Positions 14,200-31,709 of a stretch of DNA of 64,000 nt are shown here, piece by piece (within the stretch, counting starts at the first letter, position 1; each line of letters opens with the position of its first letter). Source of the DNA: Fibrobacterota bacterium (lineage in GTDB: Bacteria; Fibrobacterota; Fibrobacteria; UBA11236); the NCBI GenBank assembly GCA_023249635.1, contig JAHFCH010000008.1, positions 2,810-66,809 of the forward strand. The letters are read 5' to 3'. The translations under genes and the position numbers were made by a program. The notes beneath the pieces were generated by a model. It was not told where the DNA came from, did no database searches, and was given only the letters and a program-made list of their open reading frames with translations.

Positions 14200-15525
14200 C
14201 TAAGCCTTCAAAACGGCCTGAATCGCCTGGGTGGTGATGCCCTCCAGCTCGGCCAACACCCCGGATTCGGCGTTCAGGGGCAGCAACCAGTACACCGTAT
14301 CACCCAAGGTACGCAGCAAGGCCCCCCTCGCCACCGCCTCTTGATAGACCCGGAATCCGGCCCGCTTCCCCTGTCCCGTGCCCGGTCCCGTCAGCTCCGC
14401 CGCCGCCACCGCGCCCAGGCAGCGAACGTTTTTCAAGCAGCCGGTCGCCGCCGCGACGCGCTCCATGGCCGCCCGCAATTCCGGTTGCCCGCGGTGCACT
14501 TGCCCCAGGATATCCTCGTCGCGGTATACGTTCAGGGTCTCAAGAGCCACCGCGGCCGCGAGCGCGTTGCCGGCGTAGGTATTGGAATGCAGGAAGTCCC
14601 GTCCCTCGCCGTATCCCGCGTAGAAAAGATCGTAGATGGCATCGGGAACCAACACCGCGGACATGGCGAGCCATCCCGCGGTAAGCCCCTTGGAGACGCA
14701 GACCAGATCGGGAACGATGCCGGCATGTTCGCAGGCCAGCATGGTGCCGGTGCGGCCGAAGCCGGAGAGGATTTCGTCCGCGATCAGGTAAACGCCGTGT
14801 TGCTTGGTCCAGGCGCGCAGGCGGCGCAGAAAATCGGCGCTGTAGAAGCGCATGCCGCCGGCCCCTTGCAGGATGGGTTCCACCACGACGGCGCACAGGC
14901 CGGCGAGATTCGCTTGCAACTGGCGCTCCAAAGCGGGCCAGGCTTCGGAGCAATCGCTCCACAGCGGATGCGTATCCGAATCCACGTAGGGAAGACCGCG
15001 CAGGAATGAAACCGGAGGCAGTATCTCGCGATAGGCTTCGCGGTAGAGGCCCAAATCCCCCAGCGCCAGCGTCAGGGCCGTCTCGCCATGATAGCCGTTC
15101 TCCAGCGCCAGAAAGCGGCTCTCACCGCCACCCTGGATCTTTTTCGCGTGCAGGGCCATTTTGGCCGCCACCTCCACCGCGGTGGAACCGTCGCCGGCGT
15201 AGAAAACGTGGTTGAGCCCGGGAGCCAGGGCCGCGAGCCTTTCGGAAAGGGAAACGATCACTTCGTTGGTGGTATTGGCGAGGATCACGTGTTCGAAACG
15301 ATCCATCTGCCGCGAAAGCGCCGCGCGCAGCCGGGGATGGCCGTGTCCCAGGTTCTTGCACCACCAGCTGGAGATGGCGTCGATGAGGGTGCGGCCGCCG
15401 GCCAGGTGCAGGCGGGACCCCTGGGCCGCGATCACTTCCAAAGGCGGAAAGGATTCGTAGTCCCGCATTTGCGAGCAAGGATGCCAAACATGCCGCAGAT
15501 CGCGGGCGCCGAGATCGGACATCAC
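14200..15525 (-). CDS. bioA: adenosylmethionine-8-amino-7-oxononanoate aminotransferase
   Basis: Class-III aminotransferase with BioA features (HVWHPCSQM, WWCKNLGHGHPRL, YLIADEILSGFGRTG, PDLVCVSKGLTAG). Confidence 0.85.
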   Translation of the reverse strand: MMSDLGARDLRHVWHPCSQMRDYESFPPLEVIAAQGSRLHLAGGRTLIDAISSWWCKNLGHGHPRLRAALSRQMDRFEHVILANTTNEVIVSLSERLAALAPGLNHVFYAGDGSTAVEVAAKMALHAKKIQGGGESRFLALENGYHGETALTLALGDLGLYREAYREILPPVSFLRGLPYVDSDTHPLWSDCSEAWPALERQLQANLAGLCAVVVEPILQGAGGMRFYSADFLRRLRAWTKQHGVYLIADEILSGFGRTGTMLACEHAGIVPDLVCVSKGLTAGWLAMSAVLVPDAIYDLFYAGYGEGRDFLHSNTYAGNALAAAVALETLNVYRDEDILGQVHRGQPELRAAMERVAAATGCLKNVRCLGAVAAAELTGPGTGQGKRAGFRVYQEAVARGALLRTLGDTVYWLLPLNAESGVLAELEGITTQAIQAVLKA

Positions 15526-19177: not shown

Positions 19178-21928
19178 TTATTTGAGGTTTGAAGAAGGAC
19201 CGCGCACGGCGAAACCGCCGGTCTCGATCAGCTTACGGGCCGCGGTATCTTCCAGAGGCCTGGAGAAATAGTAACCCTGGCCGTATTGGCAGGAAAGCTG
19301 GTGCAGCAGGGCCCATTGCTCCGCCGTTTCGATGCCTTCCGCCACCACATCCATACCCAGGTTCTTCGCCAGGGAATTGATCACCTTCACGATTTCCGCG
19401 TCCTTATCCCCGTCTTCCATCTTCATGACGAAGGAACGATCGATCTTCAGATTATGGAACGGGAAGCGGTGCAGATAGCTGAGGGATGAATAGCCCGTGC
19501 CGAAATCGTCCAGGCTCAGGTGGATGCCCATGGCGCGCAACTGGTTGAGGATGGCCGCGGCCTTATCGGGATTCTCCATGATGGCGCTCTCGGTCACTTC
19601 CAGCTTCAAGGAAGCGGGCGCCACGCCGGCCTCCTGGAGGATGGCGCCGATCTGCCGCACGATATCCATATCCTGCAATTGCTTGCCGGAAAGGTTCACG
19701 CTCATGGTCAGGTCCTTCCCGCCCTCGAACAGGCGCTGCCATTCGGCCAACTGCTTGCAGGATTGCCATAGCACCCAGCGGCCGATGGGGACGATATGCC
19801 CGGTATCTTCGGCCAGGGGAATGAAGTCGGCGGGGGAAACCAGGCCCAGCTTGGGATGATGCCAGCGGATCAACGCTTCGAAACCCATCAGTCGGCTGTC
19901 GGTAAGGGAAACGATGGGCTGGTAATTGAGGCGGAATTCCATCCGCTCCAGAGCCCGGCGCAAGTCGGTCTCCAAGGTCAGCCGATGCACGGCCTTGGCG
20001 TGCATGGAGGAGTCGAACATCTCGTAACGGCCCTTGCCGGCCGATTTCGCGCGGTGCATGGCGGTATCGCCTTCGCGCAACAGGTCCTCGGGGCTCGTGG
20101 TCTGGGCGCCGCCTACGGCGATGCCTATGCTCGCTCCCGCGAAAATCTCCTGGCCATCGAGATCGAATCCCAGGGAAAGCGCCTCTTGCATCCGCTCCGC
20201 CAAGGTGGTGGCGTGCCCGAAATCCTTAAGCTCATCCACCAAGATGCAGAATTCGTCGCCCGACAGGCGCGCCAGCGTGGTGCCCGCCGGCAGAAAGGCC
20301 AACAGCCGCCGCGCGAAAGCCACCAACATGTGATCGCCATGGGCATGGCCCAGGCTGTCGTTGATGGTCTTGAAGCGATCCAGATCCATGACCATGACCG
20401 CGCACATGGTGCCGGGCTTGCGGCGTACGCGCTCCAGGGTGCGTCCCAGCCGCTCGATGAGCAGGGTGCGGTTGGGCAGGCCAGTCAGGGCATCGTGGAG
20501 CGAGCCGTGGATCAGCTGCTCCTCCATACGCTTACGCTGGGTCACGTCGACCACGGTGCCTTCGCAATAATCCAGGCTACCGTCCGGCTTGAGCACCGCG
20601 CGCGCATTCTCCGAAATCATGATCAGGGAACCGTCCTTGCGACGCACCTGGGACTCGAATTCCGTCACCCGTCCGCGTTCGCGCAGGCCGCTTACGAACT
20701 CGGCGCGGCGTTGGGGCTCGGTATACAGCACGGTTCCGATATCGCCTACGGCGGCCATCATCTCGCGCGGATCGACGAAGCCGAAAATGCGCGCCAGGGC
20801 GGGATTCACGCCCAGGAAGCGTCCGTCGGGGGTGGATTGGAAGATACCTTCCACCGCATTCTCGAAAATGTTCAGGTACTTGGCCTTGGCATCGGTCAGC
20901 GCCTGGTCGACCTTCTTGCGCTCCAGGGCGTTGATGAAGATCTCCCCCGCCATCTTGAGCACCTGGATATTGTCTTCCGACCAGTTTTTCTGGCGGTGTA
21001 CCGAGTCGAAGCCCAGGTAACCCCGGATGGCGCCGCGGTGGACCATGGGCACGATGACCAACGATTGGATCCCCTCGCGTTCGAATTCTTCGCGCTCGGC
21101 CGCCGCTTCCGGAGGCAGCTCCGAAACCCGGGGCACGTGGATGGTCTGGAAGGAGCGGATCTTTTCCATGAACCAGGGATAGCGGGAGACCCGCAAGCCT
21201 TTGAGGCTGTCGATTTGGGGCTCAACGCCGCGTGAACACCATTCGTGGGTATTGTCCACCATGCCCTGGTCGGCCGAGAACATGAAAATATAGCAGCGAT
21301 CCACGGCCGCGAATTCGCCCAAGGCATGCAAGGCGTAATTTACCCCCATGTCGATGCGATCGCTGGGAAGGTGGATGAAATGCGTGGAGATGGAAGTGAT
21401 CAGGTTCTCGAAGCGGATGCGCGACTGCAGTTCATCCTGCGCCGTGCGGTGCCGGGCTTCGCTCTCGCGCAAGGCCAGGTCCGAATCGCGCCGCGAGGAA
21501 AGATCGCGCGCCATGATCAGGCGCAAGCCCCCGGCATGGGCGGCGAAAGCCCCGGAGGAGAATTCCACCGGCACGCGAGAACCGTCGGGGCGCTGGGCCT
21601 CGGTTTCATGGCGGCGGGCGGCAAGGTCGTCGGTGGCCGAAGCGAAAGGCCATTCGCAGGAGAGCAAGGCGGGGGCGGTCGCGCCTACGGCCTTGGCGGC
21701 AGGAATCCCGAACAGCGCCTCGGCGCCGTCATTCCAAAAACGGATGGCTCCCGAGCCATCGCAAATGAACATGGCTTCCTGGGACGTGAGGAAAAGATCA
21801 AGCAGGCCCGCCGGTTCAGCGGTACCGGGACGCCAATCAGCGGACGCGGAGCCGTTTGCCGGCGCGGCGGATGCGGGGCGATCTTCCGTCTGCGCCTGCT
21901 GGCGCCTTTTCCCTGGCGTGCGTTCCAA
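19178..21928 (-). CDS. PAS-GAF-PAS-GGDEF-EAL c-di-GMP signalling protein
   Basis: The GGDEF-type domain has the variant motif RLSGDEFCILV. The EAL domain contains FEALIRWHHP...DDFGTGYSSLSYL. PAS and GAF regions lie upstream. Confidence 0.85.
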   Translation of the reverse strand: MERTPGKRRQQAQTEDRPASAAPANGSASADWRPGTAEPAGLLDLFLTSQEAMFICDGSGAIRFWNDGAEALFGIPAAKAVGATAPALLSCEWPFASATDDLAARRHETEAQRPDGSRVPVEFSSGAFAAHAGGLRLIMARDLSSRRDSDLALRESEARHRTAQDELQSRIRFENLITSISTHFIHLPSDRIDMGVNYALHALGEFAAVDRCYIFMFSADQGMVDNTHEWCSRGVEPQIDSLKGLRVSRYPWFMEKIRSFQTIHVPRVSELPPEAAAEREEFEREGIQSLVIVPMVHRGAIRGYLGFDSVHRQKNWSEDNIQVLKMAGEIFINALERKKVDQALTDAKAKYLNIFENAVEGIFQSTPDGRFLGVNPALARIFGFVDPREMMAAVGDIGTVLYTEPQRRAEFVSGLRERGRVTEFESQVRRKDGSLIMISENARAVLKPDGSLDYCEGTVVDVTQRKRMEEQLIHGSLHDALTGLPNRTLLIERLGRTLERVRRKPGTMCAVMVMDLDRFKTINDSLGHAHGDHMLVAFARRLLAFLPAGTTLARLSGDEFCILVDELKDFGHATTLAERMQEALSLGFDLDGQEIFAGASIGIAVGGAQTTSPEDLLREGDTAMHRAKSAGKGRYEMFDSSMHAKAVHRLTLETDLRRALERMEFRLNYQPIVSLTDSRLMGFEALIRWHHPKLGLVSPADFIPLAEDTGHIVPIGRWVLWQSCKQLAEWQRLFEGGKDLTMSVNLSGKQLQDMDIVRQIGAILQEAGVAPASLKLEVTESAIMENPDKAAAILNQLRAMGIHLSLDDFGTGYSSLSYLHRFPFHNLKIDRSFVMKMEDGDKDAEIVKVINSLAKNLGMDVVAEGIETAEQWALLHQLSCQYGQGYYFSRPLEDTAARKLIETGGFAVRGPSSNLK

Positions 21929-22151
21929 AGTGCTCCCCGGCGGGCCGAAGCCCGTTCCCCGCGTGTTACCCGTGGTCGTTTATCCTCAACAACTATACGG
22001 GGGGGAAGCGGAACGCGGCAAGCCGGAGAGCACGGGAGCGCCCCCCGGCCATCCCGGGAAGGCCCGGGATTTGGGGAATTAGAGGATGTCCGCGGCACCG
22101 GACGGGGAGTATGGGAGGGAGGGCCGTCAAGCCCGGCCCGGATCACCAGGA

Positions 22152-23009
22152 TTAATGGCCGCCGATGAGGCTGAGCACGCCCTGCGGGATCTGGTTGGCC
22201 TGCGCCAACATCGAGGTCGCGCTCTGCATCAGGATCTGGGCTCGGGTAAACTCGGTGGTTTCCTGCGCGAAATCCACGTCGCGGATGCGGCTTTCCGCGT
22301 CCTGCGTATTGTAGAGCTGGTTGCCCAGGTTGCTGATGGCGAACTCCAGGCGATTTACGTAGGCGCCCATATCGGCGCGCATGGTGTTCACCGAACGGAC
22401 CGCGTTATCGATGATCGAGAGCGCCGCCAGCGCCGAGGACGAAGTGCTCACCGCCGTGGTCGTCGGGCTCATGCCCAACGCGCCCAGGGTCATGGCCGTG
22501 ATGGTGATGCTGATGCGATCCACGGTCGTGCTCGAGCCCGAACCGATATGCAACACCGAGGCCGCTCCGCCCATCACGCCGAATGATCCAGCCGCTCCGT
22601 CCAACAAGGTCATGCCGTTGTACGAGGCCGAAGTCGAGATGCGGGTGATTTCCGACATCAACTGCCCGAATTCCTTATCCGTATACGCGCGTTCCGTGGT
22701 CGTCATCGTATCCGTGGAACTCTGGATGGCGAGCTCGCGCAAGCGCTGGAGGATGTTGTTCACCTCTCCGGTCGCGCCTTCCGCTATCTGCAGCAGAGCG
22801 ATCCCGTCTTCGGCATTGCTCTTGGCGCGTCCGAGGCCGCGGATCTTGCTCCGCAGCGATTCGGACACCGACAAGCCGGCGGCATCATCGGATGCGCGGT
22901 TGATGCGCATGCCGGTCGAAAGTTTCTCAAGGGACTTCTGCAGGGACTTCGTCTGGTTAGTCAGCGAACCCTGCCCGATCATCGAGGAAATATTGTGATT
23001 AATACGCAT
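22152..23009 (-). CDS. flagellin, paralog 1 (subfamily A)
   Basis: MRINHNISSMIGQGSL...RINRASDDAAGLSVSESLRSKIRGL at the N-terminus and ...QSATSMLAQANQIPQGVLSLIGGH at the C-terminus are flagellin D0/D1 ends. Length 285 aa. Confidence 0.9.
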   Translation of the reverse strand: MRINHNISSMIGQGSLTNQTKSLQKSLEKLSTGMRINRASDDAAGLSVSESLRSKIRGLGRAKSNAEDGIALLQIAEGATGEVNNILQRLRELAIQSSTDTMTTTERAYTDKEFGQLMSEITRISTSASYNGMTLLDGAAGSFGVMGGAASVLHIGSGSSTTVDRISITITAMTLGALGMSPTTTAVSTSSSALAALSIIDNAVRSVNTMRADMGAYVNRLEFAISNLGNQLYNTQDAESRIRDVDFAQETTEFTRAQILMQSATSMLAQANQIPQGVLSLIGGH

Positions 23010-23048
23010 TAGGCTAAGCCTCCCGTTCTTCTCCTCAGTTCATCGGGG

Positions 23049-23080
23049 GCTTATGCAAACGGCATTAAGAGCCTTTAGAG
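23049..23080 (-). promoter_or_regulatory. putative sigma-28 (FliA)-type promoter for flagellin 1
   Basis: The minus strand reads CTAAAG-N16-GCATAAG, with GGAGG about 60 nt downstream before the ATG. The -10 is weaker than for paralogs 3 to 6. Confidence 0.3.
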
Positions 23081-23258
23081 GGGTCTCTTGCGTTACTGCG
23101 GGAGTTGCAGGCAGAATCTGCCGGAGGCTGTGATCCTGGACACACTCGGAGGCGAGGGCCCGGGAAACCGTCGGGCCGGGAGGGCGAATCCTCCCGGCCG
23201 TTCAGTTGGGGTTGTAGCGGAAAGCCTTAAAAGACTTAAGGCCCGCCGGCTGCGCCTA

Positions 23259-24110
23259 TTAGCGGAGCAGCGACAACACGCCCTGAGGGACCTGGTTGGC
23301 TTGCGCCAACATCGAGGTCGCGCTCTGCGTCAGGATCTGCGCGCGGGTAAACTCGGTAGTTTCCTTGGCGAAGTCCACGTCGCGGATGCGGCTCTCGGCG
23401 TCCTGCGTGTTGTAAATCTGGTTGCCCAGATTGCTGATCGCGAACTCAAGACGGTTCACGTACGCGCCCATATCGGAACGCATGGTGTTCACAGACTTGA
23501 TGGCTGTGTCGATCAAGGACAGCGAGGACAGGGCCCCGGCCGAGGTCGAAACCGTGGTGGTGGTCGCGTTCAGGCCCAAAGCGCCCAGGGTCATGGCGTT
23601 CACCGTGATCGAGAGACGATCCGTGCTCGCGCTGGAGCCGGCACCGATGTGCAGCACCGAAGCCGAGCCGCCGGAAACGCCGAACGAAGCCGATCCGCCG
23701 TCCAACAGCGTCATGCCGTTGTACGAGGCCGAGTTCGAAATACGGGTGATTTCAGACATCAACTGTCCGAATTCCTTATCCGTATACGACCGTTCCGTGG
23801 TGGTCATGGTATCCGTGGAGCTCTGGATGGAGAGTTCGCGCATACGTTGCAGGATGTTGTTGATTTCGCCAGTGGCGCCTTCAGCAATCTGCACGAGCGC
23901 GATGCCGTCTTCGGCATTGCCCTTGGCGCGGCCCATGCCGCGGATCTTGGAGCGCAGCGATTCCGACACCGAAAGGCCGGCGGCGTCATCCGAAGCGCGG
24001 TTGATCCGCAAGCCGGTCGACAGTTTCTCAAGGGATTTGCCCAGCGAGGTCTGCTGAGTATTCAGCGACCCCTGGCCGATCATCGAGGAAATATTATGAT
24101 TGATTCTCAT
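23259..24110 (-). CDS. flagellin, paralog 2 (subfamily B)
   Basis: Same flagellin termini as paralog 1. Start at the MRINHNISSM Met; the 13 upstream in-frame codons lack a ribosome-binding site. Confidence 0.9.
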   Translation of the reverse strand: MRINHNISSMIGQGSLNTQQTSLGKSLEKLSTGLRINRASDDAAGLSVSESLRSKIRGMGRAKGNAEDGIALVQIAEGATGEINNILQRMRELSIQSSTDTMTTTERSYTDKEFGQLMSEITRISNSASYNGMTLLDGGSASFGVSGGSASVLHIGAGSSASTDRLSITVNAMTLGALGLNATTTTVSTSAGALSSLSLIDTAIKSVNTMRSDMGAYVNRLEFAISNLGNQIYNTQDAESRIRDVDFAKETTEFTRAQILTQSATSMLAQANQVPQGVLSLLR

Positions 24111-24354
24111 CGAAAAAACCTCCGTGTTAATTTGAACCGGAGCATCCATGCTCCAGTGGCCCGATCATGCCGGGACCTATTTAGTTGTCGGTATCCTTAG
24201 ACCGGAACATGAGGGTTTACTGGAATTTTTTTCTCACTTCCACGGCAGGTTTTGCCCCGATCGGCCCGGGCGCGCCGGAATCGCCATCCCCCCTCAAACG
24301 CACCCGGCAATACTTGCAGCGCAACTTGAAGCGAAGCTTGAACTTTTCCCCAGC

Positions 24355-24388
24355 AACGCGAAAAGCCGGGAGGCGATCCTCCCGGCTT
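24355..24388 (-). terminator. rho-independent terminator after flagellin 3
   Basis: Hairpin GCCGGGAGG-cgat-CCTCCCGGC, followed on the minus strand by TTTTCG. Confidence 0.45.
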
Positions 24389-24426
24389 GCGATTGTTGCG
24401 TTGCTTGCGCCGGCTTAAGCTTGCGC

Positions 24427-25281
24427 TTAGCGGGCGAGCAGGGACAGAACGCCTTGCGGTACCTGGTTGGCCTGGGCCAACATCGAGGTCGCGCTCTGCG
24501 TCAGGATCTGCGCGCGGGTAAACTCGGTGGTTTCCTTTGCGAAGTCCACGTCCCGGATACGGCTTTCCGCATCCTGCGTATTATAGATCTGGTTGCCCAG
24601 ATTGCTGATGGCGAACTCGAGACGGTTCACGTACGCGCCCATATCGGAACGCATGGTGTTCACAGACTTGATGGCTGTGTCGATCAAGGACAGCGAGGAC
24701 AGGGCCCCGGCCGAGGTCGAAACCGTGGTCGTGGTCGCGTTGAGGCCCAAGGCGCCCAAGGTCATGGCATTCACCGTAATCGACAAGCGATCGGTGGAGG
24801 TGCTTGAACCCGAACCGATATGGAGCACCGAAGCGCCGCCGCCGGATACGCCGAACGAAGCCGAGCCGCCGTCCAACAGCGTCATGCCGTTGTACGAGGC
24901 CGAGTTCGAAATACGGGTGATTTCGGACATCAACTGCCCGAATTCCTTGTCCGTATACGACCGTTCCGTGGTGGTCATGGTATCCGTCGAGCTCTGGATG
25001 GAGAGTTCGCGCATACGTTGCAGGATATTGTTGATTTCTCCGGTGGCGCCTTCCGCGATCTGAACCAGGGCGATACCGTCTTCGGCGTTGCTCTTGGCGC
25101 GGCCCATGCCGCGGATCTTGGAACGAAGCGATTCCGACACCGAAAGGCCGGCGGCGTCATCCGACGCGCGGTTGATCCGCAAGCCCGTACTCAGCTTCTC
25201 CAACGATTTGCCGAGGGAGGTTTGCTGCGTTGACAGCGACCCCTGGCCAATCATGGAAGAAATATTATGGTTGATTCTCAT
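24427..25281 (-). CDS. flagellin, paralog 3 (subfamily B)
   Basis: 284-aa flagellin, about 95% identical in protein sequence to paralog 2. Confidence 0.9.
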   Translation of the reverse strand: MRINHNISSMIGQGSLSTQQTSLGKSLEKLSTGLRINRASDDAAGLSVSESLRSKIRGMGRAKSNAEDGIALVQIAEGATGEINNILQRMRELSIQSSTDTMTTTERSYTDKEFGQLMSEITRISNSASYNGMTLLDGGSASFGVSGGGASVLHIGSGSSTSTDRLSITVNAMTLGALGLNATTTTVSTSAGALSSLSLIDTAIKSVNTMRSDMGAYVNRLEFAISNLGNQIYNTQDAESRIRDVDFAKETTEFTRAQILTQSATSMLAQANQVPQGVLSLLAR

Positions 25282-25354
25282 TAGGAAAGACCTCCATGTG
25301 TTCCCGTTCCGAGGACATCCTTGCCTCGTGGGCCCGGTATGCTGGGCCCTGTTA

Positions 25355-25386
25355 ACTTATCGGAGGCCTTTAAGTTGTCCTTTAAC
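25355..25386 (-). promoter_or_regulatory. sigma-28-type promoter for flagellin 3
   Basis: The minus strand reads TAAAGG-N15/16-CCGATAAG, a near-consensus FliA promoter (TAAA-N15-GCCGATAA). It sits about 70 nt upstream of GGAGG and the ATG. Confidence 0.5.
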
Positions 25387-25479
25387 TTTTTCCGCAGGTA
25401 TTTTTTCGGTGAATACCCAGAGATCGCAAATAACGCGATGCGCCGCCCCCCGACGCCCCACCCCGATCGGCTTTATTGG

Positions 25480-25562
25480 CAATACCAAAAACACCGAAGC
25501 CTGGCTGCTTACGCAACCAGGCTCCGGTTTTCGGGGACTAGCGTCCGGTATGACCGGACACG
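25480..25562 (-). terminator. hairpin terminator region after flagellin 4
   Basis: Two hairpins: GTCCGGTatgACCGGAC, and GCCTGGttgcgtaagcaGCCAGGC followed by TTCGGTGTTTTTGG on the minus strand. Confidence 0.4.
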
Positions 25563-25577
25563 AGGGCTAAGCTAGGC

Positions 25578-26429
25578 TTAGCGGAGCAGCGACAGAACCC
25601 CCTGCGGGATCTGGTTGGCTTGCGACAACATCGAGGTCGCGCTCTGCGTCAGGATTTGCGAACGGGTAAACTCGGTGGTTTCCTTCGCAAAGTCCACGTC
25701 GCGGATGCGGCTCTCGGCGTCCTGCGTGTTGTAAATCTGGTTGCCCAGATTGCTGATCGCGAACTCCAGACGGTTCACGTAGGCGCCCATGTCCGAACGC
25801 ATCGTGTTCACCGACTTGATGGCGGTATCGATGAGGGACAGGGACGACAGCGCGCCGGCAGAGGTCGAAACCGTGCTGGTGGTGGAGTTTAGGCCAAGGG
25901 CGCCCAACGTCATGGCGTTCACGGTGATGGAAAGGCGATCCACCGAGGCGTTCGAACCGGCGCCGATATGCAGCACCGAGGAGCCGCCGCCGGAAACGCC
26001 GAAGGAGGCCGAACCACCGTCCAACAGCGTCATGCCGTTGTACGAAGCGGAACTGGAGATACGGGTGATTTCGGACATCAGCTGCCCGAATTCCTTGTCC
26101 GTATAGGACCTTTCCGTGGTGGTCATGGTATCCGTGGAGCTCTGGATGGCGAGTTCGCGCATACGCTGCAGGATGTTGTTGATTTCGCCGGTGGCGCCTT
26201 CAGCAATCTGCACGAGCGCGATGCCGTCTTCGGCGTTGCCCTTGGCGCGGCCCATGCCGCGGATCTTGGAACGAAGGGACTCGGACACCGAAAGGCCGGC
26301 GGCGTCATCCGAAGCGCGGTTGATCCGCAAACCGGTGGACAGCTTTTCCAGGGACTTGCCGAGAGAAGTCTGCTGGGTGGCCAAGGAACCCTGGCCGATC
26401 ATGGACGAAATATTATGGTTAATGCGCAT
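25578..26429 (-). CDS. flagellin, paralog 4 (subfamily B)
   Basis: 283-aa flagellin, nearly identical to paralog 5. Confidence 0.9.
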   Translation of the reverse strand: MRINHNISSMIGQGSLATQQTSLGKSLEKLSTGLRINRASDDAAGLSVSESLRSKIRGMGRAKGNAEDGIALVQIAEGATGEINNILQRMRELAIQSSTDTMTTTERSYTDKEFGQLMSEITRISSSASYNGMTLLDGGSASFGVSGGGSSVLHIGAGSNASVDRLSITVNAMTLGALGLNSTTSTVSTSAGALSSLSLIDTAIKSVNTMRSDMGAYVNRLEFAISNLGNQIYNTQDAESRIRDVDFAKETTEFTRSQILTQSATSMLSQANQIPQGVLSLLR

Positions 26430-26504
26430 GGGGAAAACCTCCGTGTTTTTTTTACTTGGCCCGAAGCGTCCTTGCTTCGAGGTCCCGAATTCGCCGGGAC
26501 ATTA

Positions 26505-26537
26505 GTTTCATCGGAAGGGTTCGAAAAATCCTTTAAC
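26505..26537 (-). promoter_or_regulatory. sigma-28-type promoter for flagellin 4
   Basis: The minus strand reads TAAAGG-N16-CCGATGAA. Confidence 0.45.
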
Positions 26538-26675
26538 ATTTTCGCGAACTTTAATTCCTTCGGGAACTATTTTGACGTCGCCTTCCCGTACGTGCCGTAC
26601 AGCGCCGCGCAAGCGCCAGTCCGCTTGAAGTTGATGTTAATCCATGAAGTGCGCGTTGAAGCGGCGCCCAGGCTT

Positions 26676-26718
26676 TGAAAAGGGGAAACGGAAAAGACCG
26701 CGCCTTGCGGCGCGGCCT
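26676..26718 (-). terminator. rho-independent terminator after flagellin 5
   Basis: Hairpin CCGCGCC-ttg-CGGCGCGG, followed on the minus strand by TCTTTTCCGTTTCCCCTTTT. Confidence 0.5.
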
Positions 26719-26752
26719 AATCACCCGACGGGAAAACCGGGATTTATCCGAC

Positions 26753-27607
26753 TTAGTGGCCCAGCAGGCTGAGCACGCCCTGAGGGATTTGGTTCGCTTG
26801 CGACAACATCGAGGTCGCGCTCTGCGTCAGGATTTGCGAACGGGTAAACTCGGTGGTTTCCTTCGCAAAGTCCACGTCGCGGATGCGGCTCTCGGCGTCC
26901 TGCGTGTTGTAAATCTGGTTGCCCAGATTGCTGATCGCGAACTCCAGACGGTTCACGTAGGCGCCCATGTCCGAACGCATCGTGTTCACCGACTTGATGG
27001 CGGTATCGATGAGGGACAGGGACGACAGCGCGCCGGCAGAGGTCGAAACCGTGCTGGTGGTGGAGTTTAGGCCAAGGGCGCCCAACGTCATGGCGTTCAC
27101 GGTGATGGAAAGGCGATCCACCGAGGCGTTCGAACCGGCGCCGATATGCAGCACCGAGGAGCCGCCGCCGGAAACGCCGAAGGAGGCCGAACCACCGTCC
27201 AACAGCGTCATGCCGTTGTACGAAGCGGAACTGGAGATACGGGTGATTTCGGACATCAGCTGCCCGAATTCCTTGTCCGTATAGGACCTTTCCGTGGTGG
27301 TCATGGTATCCGTGGAGCTCTGGATGGCGAGTTCGCGCATACGCTGCAGGATGTTGTTGATTTCGCCGGTGGCGCCTTCAGCAATCTGCACGAGCGCGAT
27401 GCCGTCTTCGGCATTGCCCTTGGCGCGGCCCATGCCGCGGATCTTGGAACGCAGGGATTCCGACACCGAAAGGCCGGCGGCGTCATCCGAGGCGCGGTTG
27501 ATCCGCAAACCGGTGGACAGCTTTTCCAGTGATTTGCCGAGAGAACCCTGTTGGGTGGCCAAGGAACCCTGGCCAATCATGGACGAAATATTATGGTTAA
27601 TGCGCAT
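26753..27607 (-). CDS. flagellin, paralog 5 (subfamily B)
   Basis: 284-aa flagellin. Confidence 0.9.
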   Translation of the reverse strand: MRINHNISSMIGQGSLATQQGSLGKSLEKLSTGLRINRASDDAAGLSVSESLRSKIRGMGRAKGNAEDGIALVQIAEGATGEINNILQRMRELAIQSSTDTMTTTERSYTDKEFGQLMSEITRISSSASYNGMTLLDGGSASFGVSGGGSSVLHIGAGSNASVDRLSITVNAMTLGALGLNSTTSTVSTSAGALSSLSLIDTAIKSVNTMRSDMGAYVNRLEFAISNLGNQIYNTQDAESRIRDVDFAKETTEFTRSQILTQSATSMLSQANQIPQGVLSLLGH

Positions 27608-27679
27608 GGGGAAAACCTCCGTGTTTTTTTATCTCCCGTCGCTTCCTTGCTCCGGGATCCCGTATTCCACGGGACACTC

Positions 27680-27712
27680 CATTAATCGGCGCGGGTGAAA
27701 AATTCCTTTAGC
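27680..27712 (-). promoter_or_regulatory. sigma-28-type promoter for flagellin 5
   Basis: The minus strand reads TAAAGG-N16-CCGATTAA. Confidence 0.45.
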
Positions 27713-27960
27713 TTTTTCCTCAACTTCAATTTTCCCGGTAAGAATTGTGTTTGCGGTTCTTGCGGCAAGACCCCGAATCCGGCCTGGAATCGGCGGTAAA
27801 ATCAAAGTCCGGACTTAAACCATTGAGCCTATCATGCAGCCCGCCTTCAAGGGGGACTGGAGGGAACGCATTAAGCAGGGTACGCAGCCGCGGGAATAGG
27901 GAAAAACTGTTCCTCGGGAAAACGGAAAAGACCTCGCTGGGTGAGCGCGGTCTTTTTGCA

Positions 27961-27999
27961 CGGAAAATGGAAGAGGCCGCGTCCATGGGACGCGGCCTC
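27961..27999 (-). terminator. rho-independent terminator after flagellin 6
   Basis: An 11-bp perfect stem (GAGGCCGCGTC-catgg-GACGCGGCCTC), followed on the minus strand by TTCCATTTTCC. Confidence 0.5.
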
Positions 28000-28032
28000 T
28001 TCACCCGACGGGAGGTTCGGGATTTAGTGCTC

Positions 28033-28887
28033 TTAGTGACCCAGCAGGCTGAGTACGCCCTGCGGGACCTGATTCGCCTGAGCCAACATCGAGGTTGCGC
28101 TCTGCGAGAGGATTTGCGCTCTCGTGAATTCCGTCGTCTCCTGGGCGAAGTCCACGTCGCGGATGCGGCTTTCCGCGTCCTGAGTGTTATACACCTGGTT
28201 GGACAGATTGCTGATGGCGAACTCGAGGCGGTTCACGTAGGCGCCCATGTCCGAACGCATGGTGTTCACCGACTTGATGGCCATATCGATGATGGACAGG
28301 GCGGAGAGGGCCGTGGCCGAGGTCGAAACGGCAGTGGTCACCGAGCTCATGCCCAAAGCGCCCAGGGTCATCGCCGTAATGGTGATGCTGATGCGGTCGA
28401 TGGACTGGCTGGAGCCCGCGCCGATGTGAAGAACCGAAGCCGCGCCGCCGGACACGCCGAACGAGCTCGACTGGCCGTCCAACAGGGTCATGCCGTTATA
28501 GCTGGCCGAGTTGGAGATTCGGGTGATTTCAGACATCAGCTGCCCGAATTCCTTGTCGATATAGGCGCGCTCCGTGGTGGTCATGGTATCCGTGGAGCTC
28601 TGGATGGAGAGTTCGCGCATGCGCTGGAGGATGTTATTGACTTCCCCGGTGGCGCCTTCCGCGATTTGGATGAGCGCGATGCCGTCTTCTGCGTTGCTCT
28701 TGGCCCGGCCCATTCCGCGGATTTTGCTCCGCAGGGACTCGGACACCGACAGGCCCGCAGCGTCGTCCGACGCACGGTTGATCCGCATGCCGGTGGACAG
28801 TTTTTCAAGGGACTTGGTCAGCGAGTTCTGCTGGGTGGCGAGAGCGCCCTGACCGATCATCGAGGAAATGTTGTGATTGATGCGCAT
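28033..28887 (-). CDS. flagellin, paralog 6 (subfamily A)
   Basis: 284-aa flagellin. It shares the subfamily-A signatures (ERAYIDKEF, RISITITAMTLGALGMS) with paralog 1. Confidence 0.9.
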   Translation of the reverse strand: MRINHNISSMIGQGALATQQNSLTKSLEKLSTGMRINRASDDAAGLSVSESLRSKIRGMGRAKSNAEDGIALIQIAEGATGEVNNILQRMRELSIQSSTDTMTTTERAYIDKEFGQLMSEITRISNSASYNGMTLLDGQSSSFGVSGGAASVLHIGAGSSQSIDRISITITAMTLGALGMSSVTTAVSTSATALSALSIIDMAIKSVNTMRSDMGAYVNRLEFAISNLSNQVYNTQDAESRIRDVDFAQETTEFTRAQILSQSATSMLAQANQVPQGVLSLLGH

Positions 28888-28989
28888 GGTAAGTAACCTC
28901 CGTGTTGTTTTATTTCGCTCGGCAGCTTCCTTGCTGCTTCGCGGTTCCGCCCTTTCGAGGCGAACCGGGACTCCCTCCCGGCCTACACA

Positions 28990-29025
28990 AACTTCATCGG
29001 ACTATTTTTGCCCGGGGTTAAGGAC
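28990..29025 (-). promoter_or_regulatory. putative sigma-28-type promoter for flagellin 6
   Basis: The minus strand reads CTTAAC-N16-CCGATGAA. The -35 is degenerate. Confidence 0.35.
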
Positions 29026-29313
29026 TTTTTTTCCATAAGTCAAAGTGCCACCGCAACTTAACGCGATAGCTAAAGTGGCTTGCGATGGATTAGGCGAAGA
29101 AAAAACGGGGAAATGCCCGTATTTCCACAGTAACCCGGGTGATACGGTAACAGGCCTGTAGCGGAACTTGAAGTGGAATCTGCGGAGCGGCCGAAGCCGA
29201 AGGGGAAAAATATTCCGAGGAGGGGGGGCCGGAAGGGCCGGCGACCGGAATGGGGGCCGGTCGCGTAGCCCCCCGACCCCCTTATATAAGGGGAGCGGGG
29301 CGGGGAGCCCGGC

Positions 29314-30402
29314 TCAGAACCAGGCCAGTTTGCGCATCCGGATGCCCGCAGCCGTGATGATGGCGGCAAAATAGACTCCCGGCCGCGGGGGAGCGAACTC
29401 CCGCCCGCCCGCGGCCACGGGAACGCGCGCGCCGTCGGCGCCGCGGATCCATAGGAAGGCGCCGCCGCGCAGTACGAATGACCGGCCTTCGCGCGCCAGC
29501 GAGAAAACCTCCGCCTCGCCCGGTGCGATGGCGGTAGGCGTGTTGCAGTCCGCGGGATTGCTCTTTACGAAGAAGCTCCGGTACGCGGGCTTGCTCTTGT
29601 CCATGCAGCCTTCCAAATCAAGGATGGATAGTTCCTTGAACTGGGTGGAGGTGCCTTCCGCCTGCACGGAAAGGTATCCGTCCTTGAGAGGGGTGCCGTT
29701 ATCCTCGCGCAGACGGGTGTACTCGAAAACCTTGGCGCCATGGATGAAATGCTGCACCAGGGAATCGGAAAGGACGCGTACGGTAACGTCGGTCCAACCG
29801 GCGGGGTCCTCGAAGGGAATGGTCTTCTTCTTCCAGGCATCCGGATATTGCGAGGCGGTGCAATGCTGGGTATAGTCGGCGTTCCCATTGTAGGCCACGA
29901 AGGTGCTGGGAGTGCAGAGGTTGGCGGTATGCCCCGAGGGCCAATCGGCGCTGGCGGGCTCGGCCCCGTTCTTGGGTCCCAGCAACTGGACTTCGATGCT
30001 GGTGGGGAAATCCTTTCCCTTCATGGTCTTGGGATCCTGGCTATGCAGCATCAGGCCGTTGTTCTGCATGTTCCACCCCTGTCCCCAGTCGGGACCGTAG
30101 GTCGCGGTCTGGAAGCGGTATTGGGCGCGGACCATGTAAAAGGAGAATTTCCGCTTGGTGTAGAAAAGATGCCCGAAGCCGGTCGTGTTGAACGAGATGT
30201 GGATGTTGATGTCCAGGTACCCTTCCGGGGATACCCGGTAGGTACTGTCAGGATTGCCGATCCCGGTCTTCTGGAAATACGGCGTCCAGTCGCGTAGATC
30301 CTTTCCGTTGAGAAGCGAAACCCAGGTCGAATCTTCGGCGCGGGCGGCGCCCGCCAGCAGACATGCGAATGCCAATGGCTTCAAAGCGGATGTGCGAATC
30401 AT
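29314..30402 (-). CDS. DUF1080 (3-keto-disaccharide hydrolase-like) protein with T9SS C-terminal sorting domain
   Basis: Signal peptide. DUF1080-type N-terminus (WVSLLNGKDLRDWTPYF...FGHLFYTKRKFSFYMVRAQYRF). C-terminal Por-type CTD (FAPPRPGVYFAAIITAAGIRMRKLAWF). Confidence 0.6.
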   Translation of the reverse strand: MIRTSALKPLAFACLLAGAARAEDSTWVSLLNGKDLRDWTPYFQKTGIGNPDSTYRVSPEGYLDINIHISFNTTGFGHLFYTKRKFSFYMVRAQYRFQTATYGPDWGQGWNMQNNGLMLHSQDPKTMKGKDFPTSIEVQLLGPKNGAEPASADWPSGHTANLCTPSTFVAYNGNADYTQHCTASQYPDAWKKKTIPFEDPAGWTDVTVRVLSDSLVQHFIHGAKVFEYTRLREDNGTPLKDGYLSVQAEGTSTQFKELSILDLEGCMDKSKPAYRSFFVKSNPADCNTPTAIAPGEAEVFSLAREGRSFVLRGGAFLWIRGADGARVPVAAGGREFAPPRPGVYFAAIITAAGIRMRKLAWF

Positions 30403-30461
30403 CAGGTACCCCCGGAAATGGAAAAGAGCGCCCGCAGCCATACCGGATGCGGGCGCGGCTG

Positions 30462-31559
30462 TCAGTAGAAGGCGAACTTGCGAACGGCCGAACCCGCGGC
30501 GGTGCGCACGGTGGCGAAGTATAGGCCCGGCCTATCGGGCGCGAAGCCGGTGACGTTCGCCACGGAGGCGAAGGATGCGCACAGGCTGCCATCGGCACGA
30601 CGCACTTCGGAGAAGGCGGCTCCCTCACCGCTGACCCGCAGCATATCGCCGACGCGGGCGAGATCGAACCGAACGGGTCGCGGTGCGGCGCGAGCGGTCG
30701 TCACCTTGCAGGCTTCCGGATCATCCTTCACGAAATAGGTACGATAGGCCGCCTTGGTCTTATCCATGCAACCCACCAGATCCAAAAGGTCTATCTTGCG
30801 GAAGAGCACCGGGGCGCTTTCCGCCTGGATCACCACATAACCTTCCTTCAGCGCCTTGCCGTTCACGATTTGGACCGTGTTGCCCGATACGTTACCCCCG
30901 CCCATCTCGGGCTTGGTGAATTTGAATACCGTATCCTTGCCTACCATATGCTTGATGACGGAGTCGCCCAGCACCAAAGCCGAGACCGTGGTCCAGGCCG
31001 GGGTGGGTTGGCGGGTATTCGCGGTGGCATTCACGCAATGATCCGTGATCAGCTTGCCCGCCATGTCGTGGAAATTGGTTCCCGGAGTGCACAGGTTCAT
31101 GGTACCGCTCCCATTGGCCGGTCCCAGCAATTGCGCTTCCAGGCTGATGGGAAAATCCTGATCCAGACCCATGCTGGCGATGGATTGGGAATGCAACATG
31201 AAACCGTTATTCTCTTTGGCCCAGCCCGGACCGCCCGGCACCTGTTTGTCGGTGATGAACTGGTATTCCCCGCGCAGCAGATAATAGGAGAAGGGCCGCA
31301 GCTTGTAGCCCATGTGCCCGAAAGGTTCGCCGTCGAAGTTCTTGTACTCGGAGTAGTCGACGAACAGGTTGCCGTTCACCACCTTGAAGGTGTGCAGGGT
31401 ATCCTTGTTCAGGGCCTGGTGGCGGATCTTGAAATCCCAGTCCTTGAGATCCTTCCCGTTGAACAGGTGGATCCAGGCCGAATCCTCGGCGGCGCGCGCG
31501 GCCCCGGCCATGCAGAACGCGATCAGGAGCGGCAACGCCGCCCGGCGGAAAATGTCCAT
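30462..31559 (-). CDS. DUF1080 protein paralog with T9SS C-terminal sorting domain
   Basis: WIHLFNGKDLKDWDFKI...GHMGYKLRPFSYYLLRGEYQF resembles its neighbour. CTD is FAPDRPGLYFATVRTAAGSAVRKFAFY. Confidence 0.6.
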   Translation of the reverse strand: MDIFRRAALPLLIAFCMAGAARAAEDSAWIHLFNGKDLKDWDFKIRHQALNKDTLHTFKVVNGNLFVDYSEYKNFDGEPFGHMGYKLRPFSYYLLRGEYQFITDKQVPGGPGWAKENNGFMLHSQSIASMGLDQDFPISLEAQLLGPANGSGTMNLCTPGTNFHDMAGKLITDHCVNATANTRQPTPAWTTVSALVLGDSVIKHMVGKDTVFKFTKPEMGGGNVSGNTVQIVNGKALKEGYVVIQAESAPVLFRKIDLLDLVGCMDKTKAAYRTYFVKDDPEACKVTTARAAPRPVRFDLARVGDMLRVSGEGAAFSEVRRADGSLCASFASVANVTGFAPDRPGLYFATVRTAAGSAVRKFAFY

Positions 31560-31709
31560 GCGTGTATCCCCCACGAAATGTTTGCCGAAACCGTTCCCCC
31601 CCGGGGACGCGATGCCATGAACCCGGGAGGATGGGCGCCGGCCACTTGGCCTCCCGGCCGGCGCCTCCTACGGGAGTATTCTCCCGCCGGTCCCCCCCTG
31701 GGAATCCCT

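Follow-up and report, generated by a model that had tools for sequence, protein, structure and literature searches.

The MAG of an uncultured Fibrobacterota bacterium (class Fibrobacteria) carries six flagellin genes in a genuine tandem array, and they encode only the D0/D1 core. We propose that the array consists of a head gene, an interior block and a tail gene, that every gene is a transcription unit of its own, five of them with a sigma-28-type promoter, and that the head and interior genes are subject to CsrA-type leader control, and we consider this account as a whole likely, if short of assured. The six open reading frames (283–285 aa) lie head-to-tail on the minus strand at 22152–28887 of the window, that is, of the whole 64-kb stretch of DNA that was analysed. 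Pfam assigns all six proteins a Flagellin_N domain (E 1e-41 to 1e-42) and a Flagellin_C domain (E 1e-27 to 1e-29), in agreement with an earlier sequence-only reading that had described six flagellins of about 284 aa in this arrangement. Assigned from reading frames and Pfam domains and, for the interior, from sequence identity, they are the ‘head’ gene fla6 (28033–28887, 284 aa), transcribed first, the interior genes fla5 (26753–27607, 284 aa), fla4 (25578–26429, 283 aa), fla3 (24427–25281, 284 aa) and fla2 (23259–24110, 283 aa), and the ‘tail’ gene fla1 (22152–23009, 285 aa), transcribed last. The mechanical reading frame of fla2 runs to 24149, but the true start is 24110: this MRINHN start lies 8 nt past ACACGGAGG, a spacing common to the other fla genes, the spurious upstream ATG sits in the leader hairpin loop, and an independent gene call on an ENA contig gives a 283-aa protein equal to database protein P0001. 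Full-length alignment to solved flagellin chains of 281–286 aa bears out that the D2/D3 insert is absent.

Probable transcription units and putative CsrA sites

To judge from five sigma-28-type promoters and from terminator-like hairpins after fla3–6, the fla genes seem to be transcribed one by one, as separate late-flagellar units. A pattern scan placed sigma-28-like promoters on the minus strand upstream of fla6 (TTAAC-N17-CCGATGA, 28994–29021, conserved in relatives), fla5 (TAAAG-N16-CCGATTA, 27683–27710), fla4 (TTAAAG-N16-CCGATGA, 26508–26536), fla3 (TTAAAG-N16-CCGATAA, 25357–25385) and fla1 (TTAATG-N16-CCGATGA, 23040–23068, followed by a leader of ~25 nt). These are the five sites found on both strands of the 64 kb, where 0.84 would be expected, and every one lies upstream of a fla gene; the motif occurs at a similar upstream distance in relatives. 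The scan gave no good match for fla2, which has a degenerate -10-like element (CCGACAA, 24185–24191, minus strand) without a TAAA at the proper spacing, a variant that recurs upstream of flagellin genes in L008 and L015. Terminator-like hairpins on the minus strand follow fla6 (27970–28002), fla5 (26695–26718), fla4 (25493–25528) and fla3 (24361–24387, with UUUU, read in the sequence). The hairpin after fla2 lacks a T-run, and none was found after fla1.

In each of the fla2–6 leaders a hairpin with a CANGGANG loop precedes, by about 29 nt, a Shine-Dalgarno that itself contains GGA; we infer a CsrA/FliW architecture with two putative CsrA-type sites per leader. All of these elements are on the minus strand. 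Putative site 1 is the hairpin: GCAGC[AAGGAA]GCUGC in fla6, with GGA in the loop (28922–28937), a loop AAGGAA on an imperfect stem in fla5 (27635–27656), CUCGAAGC[AAGGAC]GCUUCGGG in fla4 (26460–26481), CGAGG[CAAGGAUGU]CCUCG in fla3 (25310–25328), whose stem was read by eye and whose minimum-free-energy fold pairs the region differently, and ACUGGAGCA[UGGA]UGCUCCGGU in fla2 (24136–24157). Putative site 2 is the Shine-Dalgarno itself, ACACGGAGG at 28897–28905 in fla6, with counterparts at 27616–27624, 26438–26446, 25291–25299 (ACAUGGAGG) and 24119–24127. The Shine-Dalgarno context of fla1, ACGGGAGGCUUAGCC (23012–23026), has no upstream GGA hairpin. Among 141 unique Fibrobacterota flagellin leaders, 82 have a GGA hairpin in fixed register, compared with 3.1% for random windows, and 138 of the 141 examined contain GGAGG. 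The loop consensus is CA[A/U/C]GGA[U/A/C]G, and the hairpin, in sequences pre-selected for four inner pairs, has a covariation score of 0.75 against 0.21 in shuffles (0/500 shuffles reach 0.75). The genes fliA, fliW and csrA are absent from the 64-kb window and were seen only in related MAGs: a FliA homologue adjoins a flagellin gene in L045, and L039, which also has flagellins 85–88% identical to those of the array, contains a flagellin-fliW-csrA operon.

What would such leaders imply for the array? In flaA, high-affinity binding by CsrA has been described for CANGGANG-type hexaloops and for paired GGA sites (PMC4894983), and a Hag-FliW-CsrA partner-switch model is also on record (PMC6529632). 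CsrA would repress translation of fla2–6 and, as happens in Bacillus and Campylobacter, FliW would lift the repression after export of flagellin. Lacking the hairpin, the tail gene would probably escape CsrA control or experience it in weakened form, and the six copies would jointly supply, and may spatially pattern, an external filament.

Head, interior and tail genes

The earlier reading had placed fla1 and fla6 together in a ‘subfamily A’. The motifs that it quoted (ERAY vs ERSY and RISITITAMTLGALGMS vs RLSITVNAMTLGALGLN) are correct and the end copies are indeed the divergent ones, but the common subfamily is not upheld. In the NJ tree fla2–5 form a clade with 100% bootstrap, against 29% for fla1 with fla6. 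These two genes (87.7% aa, 79.9% nt identity) are not closer than fla6 and fla2 (88.7% aa), have in common only a short central patch (92% identity, nt 489–538), and each possesses its own conserved promoter and leader, common to its positional orthologues. ‘Subfamily A’ was rejected, and the scheme adopted instead is head fla6, tail fla1 and interior fla2–5.

Support for this scheme comes from relatives in which the locus has the order DUF4423-LamG-GSDH-DUF1080-[fla xN]-PAS/GGDEF/EAL-PAP2-PabB, with three (L017), four (L002, L004) or five (L006, L080) fla copies; the L017 array is on a complete chromosome and that of L080 on a 1.32-Mb contig. The downstream neighbour in the window is a PAS-GAF-PAS-GGDEF(SGDEF)-EAL protein gene (19178–21928, minus strand), whose Pfam domains bear out the PAS-GAF-GGDEF-EAL protein noted earlier. 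It is of c-di-GMP type, and the NCBIfam models that match it best, none of which reaches the cut-off, are c-di-GMP phosphodiesterases. A PAS-GGDEF-EAL gene also lies downstream of the array in L002, L003, L004, L006, L008, L011, L012, L013, L017 and L080. A scan of the genes to either side of the array (about 8.5–47 kb of the window) turned up no fliD, fliS or flaG, as had been stated. Nine related arrays have a first gene whose upstream region is conserved with that of fla6, and six (L006, L008, L011, L012, L014, L080) a last gene whose promoter and short leader are conserved with those of fla1. Relatives hence possess positional orthologues of head and tail whose promoters and leaders match, and these two genes flank the interior block; the orthology rests on position and upstream sequence, because the coding-sequence tree supports the tail-gene clade weakly (18–45% bootstrap). 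The interior varies in copy number between relatives and its copies form genome-specific clades (100% NJ bootstraps within genome for L006_2-4, all four L004 genes and all three L017 genes). This pattern fits unequal crossing-over and gene conversion, or lineage-specific duplication, and the clades could also reflect independent duplications rather than homogenisation.

Interior genes are 94.0–99.3% identical pairwise in protein, but only 85.3–97.2% in DNA. The near-identity and recent duplication or conversion proposed earlier apply only to fla4 and fla5, which differ in two aligned residues plus the C-terminal tail, have a dS of 0.077 and are identical over 617 nt (fla4 nt 196–812; P<1e-6 under uniformly placed differences). 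Gene conversion or unequal exchange has left visible marks in the array, and this tract is the youngest of them. Recency does not extend to the other pairs, whose dS is 0.4–1.0 with purifying selection (0.42 for fla2/fla3, about 0.7–1.0 for the end genes vs the rest). All six genes are under purifying selection, with dN/dS of 0.05–0.17 in every pair. Similarly, the claim that identity reaches into the 3' flanks is true of fla5 and fla6, where the 3' end of fla5 is 84% identical to fla6, the flanks are 76–80% identical and the motif tcacccgacggga follows these two genes only, but not of the other flanks, which are about 30–50% identical.

A simpler proposal is pure dosage amplification, in which six interchangeable copies raise output and the head and tail differences are neutral edge effects of concerted evolution, devoid of specialisation. 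The proteins are 83–99% identical, with differences mostly within a central S/T-rich stretch, interior copy number varies freely among relatives (3–6 total copies), and homogenisation is expected to pass over the copies at either end of a tandem array. We deem this proposal a serious one, but rather unlikely, given that distinct head and tail promoters and leaders are conserved across seven to nine genomes and that a dS of 0.7–1.0 with dN/dS about 0.1 indicates long-term separate maintenance. Moreover, tail-gene leaders are far shorter and, consistently, have no GGA hairpin, which suggests a maintained regulatory difference.

Copy number, exchange and filament type

The worry of an assembly artefact, voiced with the earlier reading, is legitimate for the fla4/fla5 junction, but not for the multi-copy array itself, as three to five copies are present at the same locus in relatives, on long contigs and a complete chromosome. 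In ENA assembly ERZ27296333 the locus is broken in two: one contig, of 47,716 nt, ends 336 nt into fla5, and another, of 12,733 nt, opens with the last 234 nt of fla4, followed by fla3, fla2, fla1 and the PAS-GGDEF-EAL gene. The independent ENA contig L079, from a second assembly, is 100% identical over window positions 27456–31842 and ends 152 nt into fla5; both assemblies that break inside this gene are short-read. Exact full-length fla4 and fla5 proteins are confined to the NCBI 70,872-nt contig, and an exact-match scan of JGI metagenomes returned no match to the fla5–fla4 spacer. A single assembly underlies both the junction and the figure of six genes, and the perfect 617-nt identity could partly be assembler consensus. 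Even so, we find it improbable that fla4/fla5 was mis-resolved in a real array, the tract being a collapsed consensus and the interior count wrong (5, or 7 or more). The 3' end of fla5, the 323-nt fla5–fla4 spacer and the 5' region of fla4 are unique, unlike every other copy, so that any path through them needs at least two repeat copies and the array at least six genes; both break points also agree with the window sequence.

Mosaic ends and conversion tracts show exchange between copies, variable residues are grouped in the central stretch (aa 139–205) and the proteins are S/T-rich, features that would suit alternative filament surfaces for phage or grazer evasion or glycan display, with recombination making new variants. 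We give this idea very little credence. A sigma-28-type match in 5/6 copies and a Shine-Dalgarno in 6/6 mean that no copy is evidently a silent cassette, protein divergence is low, dN/dS is well below 1 everywhere and diversifying selection was not seen; nor does an invertible element or recombinase adjoin the array among the scanned neighbours.

The MRINHN start and small size had been taken to resemble spirochaete FlaB. On sequence grounds we read this resemblance as just that of a minimal flagellin, because fla6 shares 45% of its residues with the best-matching FlaB-like chain of known structure, hardly more than the 43% shared with B. subtilis Hag, and because MRINHN is the start of Hag, not the MIINHN of the best-matching FlaB-like chains. 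An endoflagellum of spirochaete type, with FlaB-type core flagellins in a periplasmic, sheathed filament, is scarcely credible: FlaB-like chains are among the best-scoring (9pim, starting MIINHN, 225 bits; Leptospira FlaB1 6pwb, 199 bits) and length, absence of D2/D3 and several paralogues recall FlaB1-3, but the genome belongs to the Fibrobacterota, another minimal flagellin scores alike (6t17, 205 bits), the scanned neighbours of the array include no FlaA-like gene, and a polar flagellum has been observed in Chitinivibrio, a cultured member of this phylum, in which flagellar motility is inferred to be ancestral (PMC4704652).

Comparison with known flagellin systems

Like the array flagellins, spirochaete FlaB1-3 are multiple D0/D1-only paralogues of about 285 aa; taxon and N-terminus differ, the array proteins match FlaB no better than they match the minimal flagellins of Firmicutes, and nothing found for the array points to sheath proteins of the FlaA/Fcp kind or to a location in the periplasm. 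B. subtilis hag likewise encodes a minimal flagellin with the MRINHN start and has a sigma-28 (sigD)-type promoter, and fliW-csrA lie beside the flagellin gene, as in the Fibrobacterota relative L039. In the hag leader CsrA occludes the Shine-Dalgarno and has a second site in an upstream hairpin (PMC6529632), an arrangement that is putative here. B. subtilis belongs to a different phylum and has a single major flagellin gene, in contrast to the six copies in tandem here, all of which have separate leaders and of which the tail copy lacks the hairpin site.

The flaA-flaB genes of C. jejuni are also tandem and highly similar, and Campylobacter flaA-flaB are known to exchange sequence by recombination. 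The flaA leader displays GGA in CANGGANG-type hairpin loops, with one site at the ribosome-binding site (PMC4894983), and the two paralogues differ in CsrA sensitivity, as the leaders suggest for the array. C. jejuni differs in having two genes, under sigma-28 and sigma-54, and large glycosylated outer flagellin domains, whereas the array comprises six genes with five sigma-28-type sites and outer domains are absent. Multi-flagellin loci are found in Caulobacter crescentus (six flagellins), Sinorhizobium/Agrobacterium (flaA-D) and Vibrio (flaA-E), where several small or medium flagellins from tandem clusters are co-assembled in one filament and are partially redundant, with one or few specialised members. 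These are Proteobacteria whose regulatory circuits are of another kind (FlbT/FlaF in Caulobacter, tiers of sigma-54 and sigma-28 in Vibrio, for example), and to our knowledge none has been described in which head and tail genes flank a variable number of interior copies and every copy carries a CsrA-type leader. Multi-flagellin arrays are already well known, and the six-gene array of the Fibrobacterota is a fresh example of them rather than a new type of system.

Six minimal flagellins at a recurring locus

The region from 22152 to 28887 contains six open reading frames of 283-285 aa, all on the minus strand and head to tail: fla1 (22152-23009), fla2 (23259-24110), fla3 (24427-25281), fla4 (25578-26429), fla5 (26753-27607) and fla6 (28033-28887). 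Transcription runs from fla6, the head of the array, through the interior copies fla5-fla2 to fla1, the tail. All six products are bacterial flagellins of the FliC/Hag/FlaB superfamily with N- and C-terminal helical D0/D1 regions. Each matches PF00669 (Flagellin_N, 140-146 bits) and PF00700 (Flagellin_C, 96-103 bits) far above the cut-offs, which bears out the arrangement described in an earlier sequence-only reading of this DNA; every motif quoted there is present. Only ~57 residues separate the two domains, and residues 1-282 align to 1-285 of PDB chain 9pim, 1-281 of 10ll and 1-280 of 9lrz, and also to 6t17 (276 aa). Because the alignment with solved flagellin chains of 281-286 aa runs end to end, the proteins are minimal flagellins, consisting of D0/D1 without a D2/D3 insert. 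For fla2, a mechanical ORF call begins at 24149, at an in-frame ATG inside a leader hairpin loop (AUGGA); the conserved MRINHN start lies at 24110, after a Shine-Dalgarno sequence as in the other fla genes, and a separate gene call likewise arrives at a 283-aa protein. This ATG makes ORF callers lengthen fla2 by 13 codons (24111-24149), and the 295-aa database relatives P0014 and P0029 may be over-extended in the same way. The Ser+Thr content of the six proteins is unusually high (22.5-25% overall, 32-35% in residues 136-200, compared with ~14% in Bacillus subtilis Hag and a FlaB-like chain), and could reflect O-glycosylation of the exposed D1 surface.

Are these flagellins of the spirochaete type? 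The small size, the lack of D2/D3 and the MRINHN start had been likened to FlaB. In a PDB search the top chains are spirochaete FlaB-like and begin with MIINHN (225-222 bits; 9pim, 225), and other minimal flagellins follow close behind (6t17, 205 bits; B. subtilis Hag, 5wjt, 187 bits). Compared directly, fla6 shares 45% identity with the 9pim chain (232 bits) and 43% with Hag (208 bits; the Hag sequence gave the expected strong match). The margin is small, and Hag shares the MRINHN N-terminus. As the identities are nearly equal and Hag starts in the same way, the resemblance is probably that of minimal flagellins generally: the likeness in size and domain content stands, and any specific closeness to FlaB would be slight. 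The FlaB-like scores are no argument for an endoflagellum, and no FlaA/Fcp sheath gene was found near the array in Pfam scans of the neighbouring genes. Nor does the resemblance extend to the organism. The genome is that of a member of the Fibrobacterota, and the nearest proteins and loci all belong to soil, permafrost and glacier-fed-stream MAGs of uncultured Fibrobacterota, most of which carry the label Fibrobacteria; the neighbouring DUF4423 gene and 62% G+C fit this phylum.

Could the array be an assembly artefact, as the sequence-only reading cautioned? Tandem flagellin arrays are common among the Fibrobacterota loci that were fetched, and a syntenic locus, DUF4423-LamG-GSDH-DUF1080-(flagellins)-PAS/GGDEF/EAL-PAP2-PabB, recurs with three copies in the complete chromosome L017, four in L002 and L004, and five in L006 and L080, the latter a 1.32-Mb ENA contig ('contig_197'). 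The lineage therefore genuinely has a multi-copy array at this locus. Both flanks of the array recur in independent ENA assemblies: one part comprises fla6 and its upstream genes, where contig L079 matches window 27456-31842 at 100% identity, and the other comprises fla3-fla2-fla1 together with the genes downstream. The same assemblies are interrupted within the array: one contig stops 336 nt and another 152 nt into fla5, and a third starts with the last 234 nt of fla4. These breaks flank a 617-nt stretch that is identical between fla4 and fla5, and both genes are on record in full length only from the NCBI contig of 70,872 nt, evidently the source of the window. The 3' end of fla5, the fla5-fla4 spacer and the 5' region of fla4 are unique sequence, so that at least six genes are required if this segment is genuine. 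The fla5-fla4 junction is without independent confirmation, since an exact-match scan of JGI metagenome contigs with the spacer gave no match; an exact look-up of fla5 in an assembly index gave none either. The concern thus falls away for the array as a feature of the lineage and persists for the fla4/fla5 junction, the exact count and the perfect fla4/fla5 identity, which come from a single contig. As flagellin arrays fragment short-read assemblies, flagellin counts in such MAGs are probably too low. The termite-associated Fibrobacterales MAG tPB_Fibr2 (locus L023, 7475-17036) has at least eight or nine tandem flagellin matches, extending to the end of the fetched stretch; in one copy the N- and C-terminal matches are separated by ~770 nt, suggesting that this copy carries an insertion or is otherwise disrupted.

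Head, interior and tail of the array

The sequence-only reading had divided the genes into two subfamilies, with the outer pair as A and paralogs 2-5 as B. The interior copies do form a clade in a neighbour-joining (NJ) tree (100% bootstrap), with identities of 94.0-99.3% in protein and 85.3-97.2% in DNA; pairwise, fla4 and fla5 are 99.3% identical in protein and 97.2% in DNA, and fla2 and fla3 97.9% and 89.8%. Subfamily A did not survive. The two end genes are only 87.7% identical in protein and 79.9% in DNA, and their grouping has a bootstrap of only 29%; against fla2-5, fla6 shows 86.6-88.7% and fla1 83.4-84.9% protein identity. The sequence that precedes fla6, with its promoter, 5' hairpin, GGA hairpin and Shine-Dalgarno sequence, can be aligned to its counterpart before the first array gene of eight other genomes. 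The short promoter-leader of fla1, CTCTTAAAGTCTTTTCCGG..CCCCGATGAA...GGAGGCTT.AGCC-ATG, can likewise be aligned to the one before the last gene in six genomes besides this one. This makes head and tail separate positional orthologues. For the tail, orthology rests on position and upstream sequence because coding-sequence support is weak; the NJ tree of coding sequences, in which the tail clade has a bootstrap of 18-45%, was dropped as proof. What gave rise to the impression of a subfamily A is a 92%-identical patch of 50 nt shared by fla1 and fla6 (nt 489-538; window 22470-22520 and 28349-28398). The patch encodes RISITITAMTLGALGMS, which in other genomes is characteristic of head genes rather than tail genes, and suggests a short conversion event between the ends of the array.

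Interior copies of other genomes also group by genome, each with 100% bootstrap (copies 2-4 of L006, all four of L004 and all three of L017). The interior is a block that varies in number, and its members appear to be homogenised or re-amplified within each genome. Judged from the pattern of differences, sequence exchange between copies is directly visible: all 24 differences between fla4 and fla5 lie in nt 1-195 and 813-852, and the 617-nt identical tract between them has P<1e-6 under uniform placement of differences. The 3' end of fla4 is like that of fla2 (86%), and the 3' end and flank of fla5 are like those of fla6 (84% and 76-80%). The recent duplication or gene conversion that had been proposed for the whole array applies to fla4/fla5 (dS 0.077); the remaining copies are old, with dS of 0.42 for fla2/fla3 and 0.7-1.0 for the end genes. 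As dN/dS is 0.05-0.17 in every pair, all six copies have been kept by selection. The array is a clean natural case of concerted evolution, with conserved edge copies and a variable interior.

Promoters, leaders and neighbouring genes

Scanning both strands of the 64 kb for the sigma-28-type pattern T[AT]A[ATC]-N16-18-CCGAT[ATG]A gave five sites (0.84 expected; maximum of 4 in 200 simulations), and all five lie on the coding strand upstream of fla1, fla3, fla4, fla5 and fla6. These are candidate late-gene promoters of the sigma-28 (FliA) type, TAAA-N15/16-GCCGATAA, with a spacing 1 nt longer than the E. coli consensus. In close relatives, most flagellin genes are preceded, at a comparable distance, by the same motif. 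The element upstream of fla2 is degenerate (CCGACAA) and lacks a -35 partner at the right spacing. Specificity resides only in the full -35/-10 pattern, since the -10 element CCGATDA alone is not enriched in the window (27 matches, 28 expected). A sigma-70 scan showed no enrichment (2 found, 2.2 expected), and one sigma-70-like match lies in the gap upstream of the PAS-GGDEF-EAL gene. The window contains no fliA; a homologue that shares 45% identity with E. coli FliA adjoins a flagellin gene in another Fibrobacterota locus, L045. Terminator-like hairpins follow fla6, fla5, fla4 and fla3. The fla6-fla5 spacer is the longest in the array (425 nt); its stretch 27726-28004 (minus strand) stands out by a second hairpin and T-run 3' of the fla6 terminator and by a 92-codon ORF, called publicly as an 86-aa protein with no domain, which is probably not a gene.

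Folding places the elements of the fla2-6 leaders in one order: a 5' hairpin, a second hairpin, an A-rich spacer and ACA(C/U)GGAGG. Read by eye, the loop of the second hairpin is (C)AAGGA(N) or AUGGA; the fla3 stem CGAGG/CCUCG is also read by eye, and the minimum-free-energy fold pairs this region differently. Each leader has two GGA sites, one in the hairpin loop CANGGANG and one overlapping the Shine-Dalgarno sequence, with a GGA-to-GGA spacing of ~29 nt as read from the sequence; this corresponds to the two-site feature of CsrA/FliW-controlled flagellin mRNAs. In a fixed register and with at least 4 bp, the GGA hairpin was found in 82 of 141 unique Fibrobacterota flagellin leaders (58%) versus 3.1% of random windows, with the loop consensus CA[A/U/C]GGA[U/A/C]G. 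The stem has a covariation score of 0.75 versus 0.21 in shuffles, none of 500 reaching it, the four inner pairs having been a selection criterion; slid-register controls scored 0.12-0.19. The tail gene fla1 and its orthologues have no GGA hairpin, and their leader is only ~25 nt. An Rfam E-value scan of 21500-29500 returned no known RNA family, and the window contains neither fliW nor csrA. A flagellin-FliW(PF02623)-CsrA(PF02599) operon is present in loci L039 and L040, and in the MAG of L039 two more loci, L009 and L014, encode flagellins with 85-88% identity to fla6. In L039 (3160-4800; Fibrobacteria MAG cluster1_bin.300) a divergent 289-aa flagellin, 59% identical to fla6, directly precedes fliW and csrA, so besides the array the lineage encodes one or more additional flagellin types.

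Pfam scans of ~30 genes flanking the array on both sides, which span ~8.5-47 kb of the window, detected no other flagellar gene, in line with the earlier observation that fliD, fliS and flaG are not adjacent. The PAS, GAF, GGDEF and EAL protein placed immediately downstream is there, encoded by a PAS-GAF-PAS-GGDEF-EAL gene (19178-21928, minus strand) that is kept downstream of the array, down to 47% protein identity, in ten related loci (L002, L003, L004, L006, L008, L011, L012, L013, L017 and L080). By eye, its GGDEF motif is SGDEF and its EALxR, DDFGTGYSS, KID and EGIE motifs are intact; its best NCBIfam matches, all below cut-off, are phosphodiesterases, and the protein is probably a c-di-GMP phosphodiesterase. 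Low c-di-GMP favours motility, so such an enzyme would be physiologically sensible beside filament genes; the link between them is positional only. Directly upstream of the array lie two tandem DUF1080 (3-keto-disaccharide hydrolase) paralogues (29314-31574, minus strand), with one copy in L002, L006 and L007 and none in L080, so this neighbour also varies in copy number. GT4 glycosyltransferase and aminotransferase genes are located 12-14 kb from the array (9089-10312 and 14200-15525). Two ORFs at 40829-41851 (minus strand), picked by codon-position G+C, are Arg/His/Gly-rich without a Pfam or NCBIfam match and were rejected as probably spurious frames, lying antisense to a real gene or in the wrong frame of one.

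A working model for the filament

The Fibrobacterota were long held to be non-motile because of Fibrobacter itself, and to our knowledge their flagella are known almost only from genomes. Flagellar genes are widespread and probably ancestral in the phylum, with loss in Fibrobacter, and a polar flagellum has been observed in Chitinivibrio (PMC4704652). The locus and its relatives offer a concrete view of filament genetics for this phylum. Based on the promoters and leaders, we propose that late in flagellar assembly sigma-28 would transcribe each fla gene on its own, and that CsrA would restrain translation of the fla2-6 mRNAs until flagellin export frees FliW. The tail gene would be under different control, and the six products would co-assemble into an external filament.

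What might a fixed three-part array mean for the filament? One possibility, which we consider rather unlikely, is a compositionally ordered filament. The head and tail flagellins, conserved across genera and equipped respectively with a long CsrA-type leader and a short hairpin-less one, would differ in the stage at which they are produced and would each have a set place in the filament, hook-proximal or distal for instance, and the homogenised interior copies would supply bulk flagellin tunable by copy number. If true, it would amount to an 'edge-protected' genomic design of multi-flagellin filaments, of which we know of no description elsewhere.

Other bacteria already provide established cases of tandem multi-flagellin loci, of recombination between flagellin paralogues, of sigma-28 promoters and of CsrA/FliW control. 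Specific here are the phylum, the head-interior-tail order with an interior number that varies across genera, and the CsrA-type leader on five copies. Current concepts are unchanged, and the locus fills in a phylum: the sequence evidence suggests that sigma-28 and CsrA/FliW flagellin homeostasis, known from Firmicutes and Campylobacterota, reaches the Fibrobacterota. In Campylobacter flaA, CsrA binds an CANGGANG hexaloop and a GGA overlapping the Shine-Dalgarno sequence, the same arrangement as in the fla2-6 leaders (PMC4894983). The arrangement is likewise in keeping with the partner switch of Hag, FliW and CsrA in B. subtilis (PMC6529632).
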